A stretch of 32,803 bases of DNA from an uncultured Planctomycetales bacterium (GTDB lineage: Bacteria; Omnitrophota; Gorgyraeia; Aquiviventales; Aquiviventaceae), in the NCBI GenBank assembly GCA_964401235.1, contig CAYNXT010000002.1, positions 1-32,803 on the forward strand, given 5' to 3'. Below the pieces are notes generated by a model. The model was not told where the DNA came from. It saw only the letters and a program-made list of their open reading frames with translations, and searched no databases. Positions 22,741-32,416 of the stretch are shown here, in pieces. Numbering within the stretch: the stretch's first letter is position 1; every line of letters starts with the position of its first letter. Made by a program: the position numbers and the translations under genes.

Positions 22741-22817
22741 CGGGGCGTGGCGTAGCTTGGTAGCGCGCGTGAATGGGGTTCACGAGGTCCTGGGTTCAAA
22801 TCCCAGCGCCCCGACCA
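22741..22817 (+). tRNA. tRNA-Pro (anticodon GGG)
   Basis: Hand-folded: acceptor CGGGGCG/CGCCCCG (C1:G72), A73, encoded CCA, anticodon stem CGTGA/TCACG with loop ATGGGGT, T arm CTGGG-TTCAAAT-CCCAG. Confidence 0.9.
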
Positions 22818-22827
22818 TCGAAATACA

Positions 22828-22855
22828 GTGAAAAGTGTAAAGTTGAAAGTGGAAA
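22828..22855. repeat. Heptanucleotide tandem array (GTGAAAA GTGTAAA GTTGAAA GTGGAAA)
   Basis: Four contiguous 7-nt units starting 11 nt after the tRNA-Pro 3' end. Confidence 0.8.
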
Positions 22856-27827: not shown

Positions 27828-27919
27828 TCACCGCAAAAACGCAAAATTTCGCAAAGACGCAAAAAGGTGCACTAATGTTCTTTTTTGCGTTTTCGCGGTC
27901 TTTTGCGTTTTGGCGGTGA
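27828..27919. repeat. Long imperfect inverted repeat (40-nt arms, 12-nt loop) built from CGCAAAA-like units; possible terminator or attenuator
   Basis: The left arm (27828-27867) matches the reverse complement of the right arm (27880-27919) at 33 of 40 positions by hand alignment. Confidence 0.8.
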
Positions 27920-27928
27920 TATCGTGCG

Positions 27929-29539
27929 ATGTCATCGATTCAACTCTATGACACGACGCTCCGCGATGGAGCACAGACCGAAGGCATCTCGTATTCCGTC
28001 ACTGACAAGTTGCGGATTACGGAGAAGCTCGATGCCCTCGGCTTGCACTATATTGAAGGGGGCTGGCCGGGCTCCAATCCCAAGGATGCGGAATTTTTTC
28101 GCCTGGCTAAACGCCTTCGATTCACCACTGCCCGCTTAGCCGCGTTCGGCAGCACCCGGCGAGCCGACACCGCAACTGCCGATGCGAATCTCAACGCGTT
28201 GCTCAAGGCCGAAACCAAGACCCTCACCATCTTTGGCAAGAGCTGGGATCTGCACGTCCGGGATGTTTTAAAGGTGAGTCTGTCGGATAACTTGAAAATG
28301 ATCGAAGACTCGGTCGCGTACCTGAGACGGCACGACCGCGAGGTGGTCTACGACGCCGAGCATTTCTTCGATGGATACAAGGACGATGCTGACTATGCGG
28401 TGAAGACTCTGAAGGCCGCCTTAGCCGGCGGAGCCAGCGCGATCGTCTTGTGTGATACCAATGGTGGCAGCCTGCCCAGCGAGATCACGAAGATGATTGC
28501 CGAGGTGAAACGCCACGTTCCGGTGGCCATGGGCATCCACACGCATAACGATAGCGACCTTGCGGTGGCCAATGCACTGGCGGCCGTTGAGGCGGGTTGC
28601 GTCCAGGTGCAGGGGACGATCAATGGGTATGGAGAGCGCTGTGGCAATGCCAACCTCGTCTCGCTTATCGCCATCTTGAAACTGAAAAAAGGGATCAACT
28701 GCTTGCCGGACGCGAAGTTGAAACAGTTGACCGACACCTCGCGCTATGTCGCGGAAGTCAGCAACATGGCCCAGCATGCCAATCAACCGTTTGTCGGCTC
28801 GGCGGCATTCGCCCACAAGGGCGGGGTGCATGTCAACGCGGTTATGAAGAATCCCCGCACCTATGAGCATCTGGAGCCGAGCACCGTTGGCAATGAACGC
28901 AAAATCTTGGTCTCCGAGCTCTCAGGCCGCTCTTCGCTTGTGTTTAAAGCCAAGGATTTAGCGCTGGATCTTTCCAAAGAGACGCCTCAGGCCAAGCGGC
29001 TCCTCAAACTCTTACAGCGGTTGGAGCATGAAGGCTACCACTTCGAAGCCGCAGAGGGATCGCTGGAGCTTCTCCTCAAACGAGAGCTCAAAGAGGTTCG
29101 ACCCTTCTTTACGCTAGAGGGCTTCCGCATCATCATGGAGAAACGCGATCACCGTCTCACTTCAGAAGCCACCATCAAAGTGCGGGTCAACAAGGTGGTG
29201 GAGCATACCTCAGCCGAAGGTGATGGCCCGGTGAACGCGCTCGACAATGCCATTCGCAAGGCGCTCAAGCGCTTTTATCCCACGCTCTCTGAGATGCACC
29301 TGACCGATTTTAAGGTGCGCGTGCTCGATGAAAAAGCCGGCACCGCAGCGAAGGTACGCGTCCTGATCCAGTCCCAGGATGCGCATGATTCCTGGGGCAC
29401 GGTGGGTGTCTCGGAAAACATCATCGAAGCCAGCTGGCAAGCCCTCGTCGATTCGATTGAATATAAGCTGCTTAAGGACCAACGCTCAGCGTCTAGCGTA
29501 CAGCGTATAGCGTATAGAAAGAAATCGGCTACGAAATAG
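27929..29539 (+). CDS. cimA: (R)-citramalate synthase (LeuA/CimA family, long form)
   Basis: [39 protein letters not shown]-terminal LeuA-dimer regulatory domain. Confidence 0.85.
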
Positions 29540-29584
29540 TACGATGTCCCTATACGCTATTCGCTAAACGCTATACGCTAGTCC
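29481..29584. repeat. Inverted pair of heptanucleotide arrays (AGCGTAT)n ... (CTATACG)n
   Basis: Left units are aacgctc agcgtct agcgtac agcgtat agcgtat (29481-29515). Right units are ctatacg ctattcg ctaaacg ctatacg ctagtcc (29550-29584). CTAG occurs at 29493 and 29578. Confidence 0.9.
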
Positions 29585-29593
29585 TATGTTGTT

Positions 29594-32416
29594 ATGAATC
29601 AATTGCCTCCCCAATACAATCCTAAGGAAGTCGAGGAAGCCCGCTATCAGTGGTGGGAGTCCCAAGGTTTCTTTGCGGCCGATGTGGACCCGAAGCGCAA
29701 GCCGTACACCATCGTGATTCCTCCGCCCAATGTCACCGGCATTCTCCACATGGGCCATGCGCTCAACAATACGATCCAAGACATCCTGATCCGCCATAAA
29801 CGCATGCAAGGGTTCAACGCGCTCTGGGTCCCCGGCACTGATCATGCAGGGATCGCCACGCAAAACGTCGTCGAGAAATCACTCGCCAAGGAAGGCAAGC
29901 GCCGGCAAGACCTTGGCCGCGAAGAGTTCATCAAGCGCGTGTGGCAGTGGAAAGAGCAGTACGGCAATACGATCATCTATCAGCTAAAGCGGCTTGGCTC
30001 CTCCTGTGACTGGCGCCGCGCCCGCTTTACGATGGATGAGGGGTTATCTGAGGCCGTGCTAGAGGTGTTCGTCCAGCTCTACAACAAAGGGTTGATCTAC
30101 CGAGGCAACTATATCATCAACTGGTGCCCGCGCTGCCAAACCGCTCTGGCTGATGAAGAAGCGCCTCGCCGGCAAACCCAAGGCAAGCTCTACCACATTC
30201 GATATTCGCTGGAATTGGGTGAAGGGTTATCAGTTTTTCTTGAGGTGGCGACGACGCGACCAGAAACGATGCTTGGTGATACCGCCATTGCCGTCCATCC
30301 GAAGGACAAGCGATACAAATCGCTCATTGGCAAGCACGCGATCTTGCCATTAGTGAATCGAAAGCTCCCCGTCATTGCCGATGAGCTGGTGGACCGCGAA
30401 TTCGGCACCGGCGCGGTCAAAGTCACACCGGCCCATGATCCTGCAGACTTCCACATGGGCAAGAAGCACAAGCTCGAGTTCATCAACGTGATGACCGATG
30501 ACGCGCACATGACGAACGTCCCCAAAGCCTACGAAGGGTTAGACCGGTTTGAGTGCCGCAGCAAGCTCATTGTCGATCTTGAACAAGCTGGGTTCCTCGG
30601 AGCGATCGAGGAGCACCAACACAACGTGGGCCATTGCTACCGGTGTAACACGGTCGTGGAACCTCGGCTCAGCCCTCAATGGTTTGTAAAAATGAAGCCG
30701 CTCGCCAAACCGGCTCTTGAGGCGGTGAAGAAGAAAAAGATCACCTTTGCGCCGGCGCGCTGGACCAAAGTCTACCTCAACTGGATGGAGAACATCGAGG
30801 ACTGGTGCATCAGCCGTCAGATCTGGTGGGGCCATCGTATTCCGGTCTGGTATTGCGATACATGTCTTGGCCAGACCGGAGTGGAAAGTGGACAGTGGAA
30901 AGTGGAAAGCAAAACCGGTCGTCAAGCAGGAATTATCGTGTCGAAAAATCAACCTGCTGGATGTCCGGCTTGCGGCTCCACGAAGCTGCGTCAAGATGAA
31001 GATGTGCTCGACACTTGGTTCTCCTCATGGTTGTGGCCCTTTTCCACGCTAGGCTGGCCCAAAAAGACCAAGGACCTAGCCTACTTTTATCCCACCCATA
31101 CGCTGGTGACTGCGCAGGAGATCATCTTCTTCTGGGTCGCCCGCATGATCATGGCCGGTTATTTCTGCATGAAAGAACCCCCATTTACCAAGGTCTACAT
31201 TCACGGCACCGTGCGCGACATCACCGGCAAGAAGATGTCCAAATCATTGGGCAACATTATCGATCCGTTGCAGATCATCGACCAGTACGGCACCGATGCG
31301 CTGCGTTATACCTTGGTGACCTCAACCGCAATCGGCCAGGACGTGTTCCTCTCCGAGGAGCGGTTTACCGCCGGCCGCAATTTTGCCAACAAGCTCTGGA
31401 ACGCCACGCGGTTCATTCTGAGCGTTGCCGAAGGCTCTAGGCCGAAGGCCGAAGGCAAGCCTCCAGCCTCCAGCCTCCAGCCTCGAGCCCTCATGATTCC
31501 TGACCGTTGGATATTGTCTAAGCTGCAGCACACCATCACGCGAGTGACGAAATCGCTCGACCAGTTCCTGTTCAATGACGCGGCCACCGCTCTCTACGAT
31601 TTCTTATGGCACGACGTGTGCGACTGGTATCTCGAGATCGCGAAAGTTCAACTAGCTCCAAGCTCCAAGCTCCAAGCTTCAGCAGACACGTCCAGCCTGC
31701 AGCTTGAAGCCTGCAGCAACACCATCGGCATTTTGACTCACGTTCTTGACACGAGCCTGCGGCTGCTTCATCCCGTTATGCCGTTTGTGACTGAAGAACT
31801 CTGGCAGCAACTAGCAACAAGCAACAAGCAACAAGCAACACGGAAACCCGCAACTGTTGCTGGTCGCGTGTCGCATGTTGCTTCAATTATGGTGGCTGAG
31901 TGGCCCAAGGCCTCCAAGAAACTGATTGATGAGAAAGCCGAAGAGCAGTTCGAGCAGTTCAAGGCGGTCGTGGTCACGATCCGGAACACGAAGGCTGAAT
32001 TAAACGTCCCGCTCGATGCCAGGCCACCGGTACGACTCTCCAGCGCGCAGGCGCCTGTCAGGGCCTTCTTCGAAGCGCACCGGCCGCTTCTGCAGGTTTT
32101 AGCTGGGACCGGTGAGATTTCCGTGGAAGCCGCGCGCCAGCGCATCAAGCACGCCGCAGCGTCCGTCGTGGACGGCATTGAGGTGGTGATCCCGCTTGAG
32201 GGGATGATCGACCCGGCTAAGGAGCGCGGCCGGCTTGAACAGCGCATCACTGAGTTGACGAACCACGTCAAGCGACTCGAAGCACAGCTGGCGAACACAC
32301 AGTTTACCAAACGAGCCCCGAGGGACGTTGTGGAACAGACAAAGACCGCGTTGACCCAGGCCCGCGAGAACTTGAAAAAATCCTCGGAGCACCTGGCCGT
32401 CCTGCAGTCCATGTAG
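29594..32416 (+). CDS. valS: Valine--tRNA ligase
   Basis: PPPNVTGILHMGHA (HIGH), KMSKSLGN (KMSKS), QDEDVLDTWFSS, C-terminal coiled coil. Confidence 0.96.
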   Translation: MNQLPPQYNPKEVEEARYQWWESQGFFAADVDPKRKPYTIVIPPPNVTGILHMGHALNNTIQDILIRHKRMQGFNALWVPGTDHAGIATQNVVEKSLAKEGKRRQDLGREEFIKRVWQWKEQYGNTIIYQLKRLGSSCDWRRARFTMDEGLSEAVLEVFVQLYNKGLIYRGNYIINWCPRCQTALADEEAPRRQTQGKLYHIRYSLELGEGLSVFLEVATTRPETMLGDTAIAVHPKDKRYKSLIGKHAILPLVNRKLPVIADELVDREFGTGAVKVTPAHDPADFHMGKKHKLEFINVMTDDAHMTNVPKAYEGLDRFECRSKLIVDLEQAGFLGAIEEHQHNVGHCYRCNTVVEPRLSPQWFVKMKPLAKPALEAVKKKKITFAPARWTKVYLNWMENIEDWCISRQIWWGHRIPVWYCDTCLGQTGVESGQWKVESKTGRQAGIIVSKNQPAGCPACGSTKLRQDEDVLDTWFSSWLWPFSTLGWPKKTKDLAYFYPTHTLVTAQEIIFFWVARMIMAGYFCMKEPPFTKVYIHGTVRDITGKKMSKSLGNIIDPLQIIDQYGTDALRYTLVTSTAIGQDVFLSEERFTAGRNFANKLWNATRFILSVAEGSRPKAEGKPPASSLQPRALMIPDRWILSKLQHTITRVTKSLDQFLFNDAATALYDFLWHDVCDWYLEIAKVQLAPSSKLQASADTSSLQLEACSNTIGILTHVLDTSLRLLHPVMPFVTEELWQQLATSNKQQATRKPATVAGRVSHVASIMVAEWPKASKKLIDEKAEEQFEQFKAVVVTIRNTKAELNVPLDARPPVRLSSAQAPVRAFFEAHRPLLQVLAGTGEISVEAARQRIKHAAASVVDGIEVVIPLEGMIDPAKERGRLEQRITELTNHVKRLEAQLANTQFTKRAPRDVVEQTKTALTQARENLKKSSEHLAVLQSM
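30881..30908. repeat. Heptanucleotide array inside valS (GTGGAAA GTGGACA GTGGAAA GTGGAAA)
   Basis: Four contiguous 7-nt units, translated as VESGQWKVES. Flanked by accgg (30875) and accgg (30914). Confidence 0.85.
31427..31493. repeat. Two abutting heptanucleotide arrays inside valS (GCCGAAG-type x4, GCCTCCA-type x5)
   Basis: gccgaag gctctag gccgaag gccgaag / gcaa / gcctcca x3 gcctcga gccctca. Translated as AEGSRPKAEGKPPASSLQPRAL. Confidence 0.85.
31654..31716. repeat. Nine-unit heptad block inside valS (AGCTCCA x3, AGCTTCA ... CCTGCAG CTTGAAG CCTGCAG)
   Basis: 63 nt, equal to 9 x 7 nt and to 21 codons. Preceded by CTAG at 31652. Translated as LAPSSKLQASADTSSLQLEAC. Confidence 0.85.
31807..31883. 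repeat. Inverted heptad arrays inside valS (GCAACAA x5 ... TGTTGCT-type x4)
   Basis: Left units at 31807-31841, spacer, right units gttgctg gtcgcgt gtcgcat gttgctt at 31856-31883. CTAG at 31811. Translated as LATSNKQQATRKPATVAGRVSHVAS. Confidence 0.85.

Follow-up and report, generated by a model that had tools for sequence, protein, structure and literature searches.

An inverted heptad repeat across the cimA stop codon supplies the CimA C-terminal tail and is probably one copy of a dispersed foldback repeat family

Why does a cimA gene end within an inverted array of seven-nucleotide units that reaches almost to the start codon of the valS gene downstream? The question arises on contig CAYNXT010000002.1, positions 1-32,803 of the + strand (the window, 32,803 nt, whose numbering is used here), which belongs to a 2.12-Mb metagenome-assembled genome (MAG) with 58% GC, designated G000, of an uncultured bacterium related to Omnitrophota. 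An original prediction, made from the sequence of the window, had treated the repeat as a singular element that replaced or extended the 3′ end of cimA and that could act as terminator, processing site or mRNA stabiliser. Based on comparisons within G000 and with genomes of the same order, we conclude, with a probability of roughly 0.7, that the hairpin is one gene-less copy of a family of dispersed foldback elements of about 95 nt, tolerated at an unconstrained cimA end and supplying the tail of the encoded protein.

The cimA coding sequence (27929-29539, +; 536 residues), taken from the list of open reading frames (ORFs), encodes a protein of the citramalate/2-isopropylmalate synthase family with the Pfam domains HMGL-like, HCS_D2 and LeuA_dimer. 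Its stop codon lies 54 nt ahead of the ATG of valS (29594-32416, +), the start of which agrees with that of its orthologues (M-x-x-LPPQYNP). Two inverted heptad arms stand at the cimA 3′ end. The left arm (29488-29517, +) consists of the units AGCGTCT, AGCGTAC, AGCGTAT and AGCGTAT followed by AG, and encodes S520 to Y529 and part of R530. The right arm (29550-29581, +) is not translated and reads CT, ATACGCT, ATTCGCT, AAACGCT, ATACGCT, AG; its reverse complement, CT, AGCGTAT, AGCGTTT, AGCGAAT, AGCGTAT, AG, thus holds four units. The arms are 87% complementary over 30 nt. Between them lies a loop of 32 nt (29518-29549, +), which encodes (R)KKSATK and contains a small internal stem. The TAG with which cimA ends (29537-29539) falls within this loop. 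At the stem base, TCC (29582-29584, +) pairs with GGA (29475-29477) and lengthens the stem. Neither the array nor its fold is expected by chance: AGCGNNNAGCGNNNAGCGT (allowing at most one mismatch) gave four matches against 0.02 expected, a number reached in none of 100 shuffles, and the RNA of 29465-29600 folded at -49.8 kcal/mol, compared with -31.4 +/- 3.6 for shuffled sequences (z = -5.1; 0 of 200 as good).

The inverted heptad repeat across the cimA stop codon, the position of that codon in the loop and the stem expected from folding in silico are thus confirmed, with small corrections. Of the five units predicted for the left array, four are canonical, and the supposed fifth (29481-29487, +; AACGCTC, within codons Q518-S520) is a degenerate outer heptad that also adds to the stem. 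Similarly, an inverted arm is present where five complementary units had been placed (29550-29584), but it has four units and ends at 29581. The distance to the valS ATG, given as 10 nt, is 12 nt from the right arm or 9 nt from the extended stem.

In the 24 same-order genomes CimA is conserved up to ...SIEYKLLKD(Q) and is unrelated beyond. The last conserved residues of the window protein, K513-L-L-K-D517, are encoded at 29465-29479 (+), with Q518 often held in common, and the Pfam LeuA_dimer match ends at residue 513. With 80 distant orthologues, tblastn matches ended at query residues 512-528, and the tails past the equivalent of D517 were not conserved (median 6 residues, interquartile range 2-13, maximum 29). 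Repeat-free relatives do not conserve the window tail; their CimA proteins end 3-12 residues later in unrelated sequence, such as RARR, RTKTR or RKSGNGPKKKR before the stop. The tail QRSASSVQR... is common only to the window genome and G039, which carries AGCG arms at the same place. Given that homology ends at D517, that tails are unconserved and that QRSASSVQR occurs only with AGCG arms, the element supplies the CimA tail, and the proposal that it replaced or extended the cimA 3′ end holds. Residues from about 520 to 536 (approximately 17) are thereby shown to be element-encoded and without a conserved role; the element also lengthens the cimA-valS spacer. The odd CimA tail should consequently be annotated as repeat-derived, not as a functional extension.

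The cimA frame reads through the left arm, in which the TAG triplets at 29494, 29508 and 29515 are all out of frame. The only unit junction in the cimA frame (29501-29503, +) reads CAG (Gln) instead of the TAG typical of the family, which explains why the frame remains open; G039 carries the same base. Among named relatives, those closest in CimA are Omnitrophota MAGs; a look-up of the exact CimA protein returned no record, and the CimA tree is too poorly resolved for gains and losses to be counted. At one locus of G046 (L094), an expanded left array of about 13 CAGAAGN units at the end of cimA adds at least 40 residues to CimA; the gene downstream of cimA is not valS there.

Heptad arrays are abundant in the window genome. 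In G000 we counted 51 perfect period-7 arrays of at least 3 copies, compared with one array of period 6 and none of period 8; for approximate arrays the respective numbers were 193, 41 and 16. More than 20 unit families can be distinguished among the arrays, most of them with units that are not G-rich. All families share a common build, namely two inverted arms of approximately four heptads each, the unit consisting of a conserved core of about 5 nt and 2 variable positions. The family of the window unit, AGCGTAT, has approximately 30 arms with conserved CT...AG ends in G000, present as 11 close hairpin pairs and 13 solo arms. Its elements follow the plan of 32-nt arms, CT-(AGCGNNN)x4-AG, inverted around a variable loop, and measure about 70-120 nt (approximately 95 nt). 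The loops (10-61 nt) are unrelated in sequence between copies, and one contains an apparent native terminator. The repeat at cimA is therefore not a singular element but one copy of a large dispersed family.

On a crude ORF map of G000, 45% of the arrays were inside ORFs, and 18% spanned a stop codon or fell within the final 45 nt of a reading frame, compared with 6% for random placement; repeat-derived C-termini are thus common in this genome. A further pair of AGCG arms (30 nt, inverted) lies in frame in nadC, just beyond the window end (C2:32878-33112), where the arms encode LAYSVERIAD and LYAKRYPLSA on either side of approximately 180 nt of native NadC coding sequence.

Across the order, a heptad hairpin was found at the cimA/valS junction in 14 of the 24 genomes, directly after KLLKD(Q) and ending about 1-30 nt (mostly 16 nt or less) before the valS ATG. 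The arms at this junction are of at least six types, which are exchanged even inside one genus: AGCGNNN (G000, G039), GCACACA (G018, G016, G038, G040, G031), CAGAAGN (G008, G017, G009, G046), CGGAAGT (G001), TGGAAGC (G042) and AGCAACA (G044). The arm type at the junction agrees with the families that are abundant in the same genome. Folding of the junction hairpins gave z-scores between -4 and -10 in 12 of 13 cases, and the distance from cimA stop to valS ATG increases from 7-21 nt without a hairpin to 29-82 nt with one. In G031 and G039 the cimA stop codon is not in the loop. For the congeneric genomes G039 and G040 the flanks are 85-93% identical, whereas junction arms and loop cannot be aligned; judged from this alignment, the whole hairpin appears to have been replaced between the same boundaries. 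Conversely, left arms of one type can be nearly identical (30 of 31 positions for G000 and G039, 38 of 39 for G018 and G016) between flanks of 74-82% identity and loops that cannot be aligned. Three contigs, L104 (G032:C58), L105 (G036:C28) and L106 (G033:C2), end within the last cimA codons, as assemblies do at repeats. At two junctions devoid of heptads (L084 in G002, L097 in G037) a 6-bp stem, CCCGTC/GACGGG, encloses the cimA stop codon; its fold was not significant compared with shuffles.

The same pattern recurs within valS. An alignment of 19 ValS sequences revealed in-frame heptad hairpins at five positions, with differing units and cleanly missing from close relatives. In the window, valS carries in frame an AGTGGAA array (site B; 30880-30909, +), a GAAGGCN/AGCCTCC hairpin that belongs to a family of 13 AGCCTCC arrays (site C; 31427-31489, +), AGCTCCA arrays (site D; 31654-31716, +) and an AGCAACA array (site E; 31806-31840, +). 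Five valS sites that are shared in position and differ in their units indicate that the cimA/valS junction is not special. A supposition that genomes lacking the junction hairpin are free of heptads was withdrawn, as G002, G012 and G041 carry other units in the valS alignment.

The roles proposed for the hairpin by the original prediction were not borne out. Nothing favours an intrinsic terminator: the loop is 32 nt long, a U-run is lacking (the tail reads UCCUAUGUUGUU) and the terminator scan calls nothing at the cimA/valS hairpin; a terminator annotation is unwarranted. A search of Rfam 15 with positions 29000-30000 yielded no match at E <= 1. Processing by RNase III is unsupported: neither PF14622 nor PF00636 was found in G000, and of the 37 genomes of the order 35 lack PF00636, which is present only in G045 and G020. 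Given that hairpins of the same build lie inside the essential ORFs valS and nadC, the structure per se cannot act as a strong signal for termination or cleavage. Long stems might persist inside mRNAs because RNase III is absent.

We compared partner arms in 37 in-register AGCG hairpins from seven genomes at 9 variable positions. No compensatory covariation was found: true partners differed at 4.68 of the 9 positions and shuffled partners at 4.28 (p = 0.99 for fewer mismatches). The pairing of the arms derives from the constant cores of the family, and the variable triplets are drawn from a small vocabulary common to the seven genomes (TAT, GAT, TTT, TAG, TTC, TAC and TGG). The slight excess of mismatches between true partners, which was matched in approximately 1% of permutations, could reflect avoidance of perfect palindromes. 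A dedicated function as terminator, processing site or stabiliser thus finds neither U-run, RNase III domain nor covariation on its side, and a regulatory role of the hairpin is unsupported.

The valS start has no evident Shine-Dalgarno-like sequence. Given this, and the originally very short spacer, valS is probably translationally coupled to cimA. In the cimA-valS transcript the element would form a long, imperfectly paired stem, its 3′ side ending 9-12 nt before the valS start. Ribosomes that complete cimA and reach the stop codon in the loop would melt this stem, and coupling of valS would remain possible. The most likely consequence of the element would be a reliance of valS translation on stem-melting ribosomes, that is, an effect through coupling and not through termination or cleavage.

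The AGCG family also includes a gene-bearing copy. On contig C68, AGCG arms at 578-607 and 979-1006 enclose an ORF of 117 residues that belongs to PF05635 (E = 4e-36), the Avd-like "23S rRNA intervening-sequence protein" family (PMC4990558, PMC10053308). All 8 PF05635 genes of G000 are located 18-76 nt from a heptad array, each with a different unit family, and every one apart from the C68 gene is likewise bracketed by arms of a heptad family of its own; sequence within 150 nt of an array makes up only 3% of the genome. Of the 52 PF05635 genes in the order, 39 have an array at a distance of 200 nt or less, and 27 have mutually complementary arrays on both sides. The nearest proteins to the C68 copy, from G039 (77%) and G046 (72%), are likewise accompanied by AGCG arms, and PF05635 protein identity predicts arm similarity throughout the order (Mantel p = 0.0026): protein pairs of at least 70% identity differ on average at 1.0 of the 7 unit positions, pairs below 50% identity at approximately 2.9. 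We infer that such a PF05635 gene-plus-arms unit gave rise to the copy at cimA, which would be non-autonomous.

The reading of the cimA/valS hairpin as a gene-less copy of the dispersed family, which would be tolerated here for want of constraint on the CimA C-terminus and on the short spacer, has to be weighed against several observations. No direct repeats that would represent target-site duplications were seen in the flanks of AGCG copies; the occupied and empty sites of sister genomes were too diverged (78-82% identity) to resolve them. No known transposase lies between AGCG arms. The loops of family copies are mutually unrelated, and the nadC arms placed around 180 nt of native sequence fit poorly with insertion of a ready-made hairpin. 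Occupancy of the junction in 14 of 24 genomes exceeds what random insertion predicts, and a hairpin there may be under selection. The density of period-7 arrays showed no correlation with the number of PF05635 genes (Spearman 0.15, p = 0.42, for small samples of 15-60 kb from incomplete MAGs), and G017, G044 and G009 contain many arrays with no PF05635 gene found in these 66-90% complete MAGs.

Selection for a hairpin is the core of the explanation that the structure is, or has become, an RNA element with a function in the cimA-valS operon, either a 3′ stabiliser, a partial terminator or a coupling structure that sets the CimA:ValS ratio. Such selection would keep a hairpin at the junction whatever its sequence, in agreement with the recurrence of at least six arm types at one junction, the replacement within the same boundaries between G039 and G040, the significant folds of nearly all junction hairpins, the stop codon within the loop in most of them, and the short distance from the 3′ stem base to the valS ATG. 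Repetitive extragenic palindromic (REP) elements and bacterial interspersed mosaic elements (BIMEs) are, moreover, known to stabilise mRNA. However, the five in-frame valS sites persist with the same turnover of units, and a regulatory hairpin would make no sense there. Ten of the 24 genomes manage without a junction hairpin, two of those that have one place the stop codon outside the loop, and the missing U-tract, terminator call, covariation and, in most genomes, RNase III do not point to an RNA function either. We therefore consider this explanation unlikely.

Polymerase slippage in place could also generate heptanucleotide microsatellites, their inversion being coincidental or due to template switching, and neither an element nor a partner protein would then be involved. 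Slippage has been proposed as the cause of the over-representation of heptameric repeats in many bacteria (PMC4692102), and the arrays do homogenise internally, as illustrated by the right arm of G018, which departs uniformly by one base from the complement of its left arm. Slippage does not account for approximately 30 arms at unrelated loci that share core, four-unit length and CT...AG ends, for a limited triplet vocabulary recurring in seven genomes, for close inverted pairs far above chance, or for arms that bracket PF05635 genes and co-vary with them. The dispersed identical arms already largely refute this very improbable origin. Least credible is selection on the extended basic CimA tail itself, with a role in regulation, localisation or oligomerisation for instance, the DNA repeat being incidental. 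Most members of the CimA family, with heptads or without, do end in a short K/R-rich peptide, yet tail sequence and length are unconserved even in sister genomes, the K/R bias results from the elements being A-rich at their inner boundary, and an early stop codon in G031 removes the tail entirely. The loop, finally, might be native cimA sequence between two separately inserted arms, as suggested by the nadC arms flanking native sequence and by the K/R-rich character of the loops; against this, the loop differs between G039 and G040 along with the arms.

A dispersed heptad family with gene-bearing and gene-less copies resembles several described systems. The arrays of GGGAATC in Xanthomonas campestris and X. 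axonopodis and of GGGGAYT in Nostoc are also built of tandem 7-nt units, approximately four per array (28 nt), include 70-75 convergent pairs able to form stem-loops, lie near gene ends, and recur at the same junctions in related species, where their length and sequence vary (PMC4692102). They differ in that Xanthomonas has one dominant G-rich unit, read as G-quadruplex-forming, compared with the many mostly not G-rich units of G000, and in that 7-11% of arrays were inside ORFs in the Xanthomonas/Nostoc study (PMC4692102), compared with about 45% here. The ORF-bearing intervening sequences (IVSs) of the 23S rRNA of Coxiella burnetii and Leptospira, regarded as selfish elements of unknown mobility, contain a PF05635 (S23p) ORF and terminal inverted repeats; in Coxiella the ORF lies between repeats that pair as a 28-bp stem, i.e. 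4 x 7 (PMC4990558). This layout is common to gene-bearing copies here, such as C68:578-1005, and to the 27 PF05635 genes with arrays on both sides. IVSs, however, are located in 23S rRNA helices 9, 25 or 45 and are excised from the RNA by RNase III (PMC4990558), whereas the copies described here are in protein-gene junctions and ORFs, the window copy has no ORF, and the lineage largely lacks the enzyme.

Translation in frame within unrelated housekeeping genes, seen here for the left arm in cimA, four elements in valS and two arms in nadC, is also a property of Rickettsia palindromic elements (RPEs), small palindromic repeats that are likewise found at the same sites in related species (PMC10969869). 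RPEs are approximately 150 bp long and have a conserved family consensus encoding a conserved peptide (PMC10969869), in contrast to heptads that are read in all three frames and have unrelated loops and many interchangeable arm families. REP, BIME and REPIN elements with their REP-associated tyrosine transposases (RAYTs) are short extragenic palindromes at gene ends that occur as inverted doublets and singletons, as do the arms here; they can stabilise upstream mRNA, and the single-copy partner gene is flanked by its own repeats. The heptad arms differ in not being palindromic in themselves and in lacking a GTAG tag. Four Y1_Tnp matches were found in G000, three of them RAYT-like genes (C9:9849-10565; C159:3001-3612 in reverse-strand numbering, forward 311-922; C244:1489-2346). 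A link of the heptads to RAYT/REP was rejected, as these three genes are flanked by GGGGAC-type repeats of their own and not by heptads; the GGGGAC-containing REP-like repeats and RAYT-like genes form a second repeat system in G000, separate from the heptad arms.

Miniature inverted-repeat transposable elements share with the AGCG family the small size, the terminal inverted repeats (here the 32-nt arms) and the many copies. They are expected to show target-site duplications, none of which was seen in the flanks of the listed AGCG copies, and to have a transposase-bearing parent with the same ends; the gene between the AGCG arms on C68 encodes a PF05635 four-helix bundle and no known transposase. 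Eukaryotic foldback (FB) transposons have terminal inverted repeats composed of short tandem subrepeats, with central regions that are variable or absent. Their kilobase scale, their eukaryotic hosts and their association with a transposase-bearing partner distinguish them from the heptad elements.

The chief value of the element is as a clear case that links known kinds of repeat (inverted heptamer arrays, in-frame palindromic repeats and IVS-type elements) to PF05635 genes. Rehm et al. (2015) drew no connection from their arrays to a protein gene, and repeat #15 of their supplementary table, which has four GGGAATC units in 28 nt, extends over the start of XCC0516 (PMC4692102). This X. campestris gene encodes the only PF05635 homologue with a solved structure (PDB 2GSC), a homopentamer of four-helix bundles related to the Avd protein of diversity-generating retroelements (PMC4990558, PMC10053308). 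Among the papers searched, none links heptad-armed hairpins with PF05635 genes. It is conceivable, and we propose it only tentatively, that heptad hairpins and PF05635 genes constitute one undescribed repeat-plus-protein system that also includes the Xanthomonas GGGAATC arrays and the ORF-bearing 23S rRNA IVSs. The pentameric protein would in such a system recognise a cognate array of four to five heptads and drive the spread, replacement or maintenance of arms at hairpin-prone sites, and the cimA/valS hairpin would depend on the C68 protein in trans. A protein acting on hairpin-prone sites would explain the continued occupation of the same junctions and protein loops across genera despite the swapping of arm sequences.

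The locus connects three unexplained matters: the over-representation of heptamers in bacteria, the Xanthomonas GGGAATC arrays and the function of the PF05635 family. Over-representation of heptameric repeats in bacteria has been noted since 2007. The PF05635 link is open to direct testing, X. campestris being culturable, the structure of XCC0516 being solved and a heptamer array abutting its gene. Heptad elements can, furthermore, persist at fixed sites in essential genes while their sequence turns over, and do so in a lineage seemingly devoid of RNase III, the absence of which may permit long stems in mRNAs.

Two further arrays were observed in the window. In the lysC/cimA spacer (27832-27917) a hairpin with units of approximately 8 nt, composed of four copies of CGCAAAAN, a short loop and four copies of NTTTTGCG, ends approximately 12 nt 5′ of the cimA ATG. 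A degenerate AGTGNAA array (22827-22855) begins 10 nt past the 3′ end of the gene for tRNA-Pro(GGG) (22741-22817).

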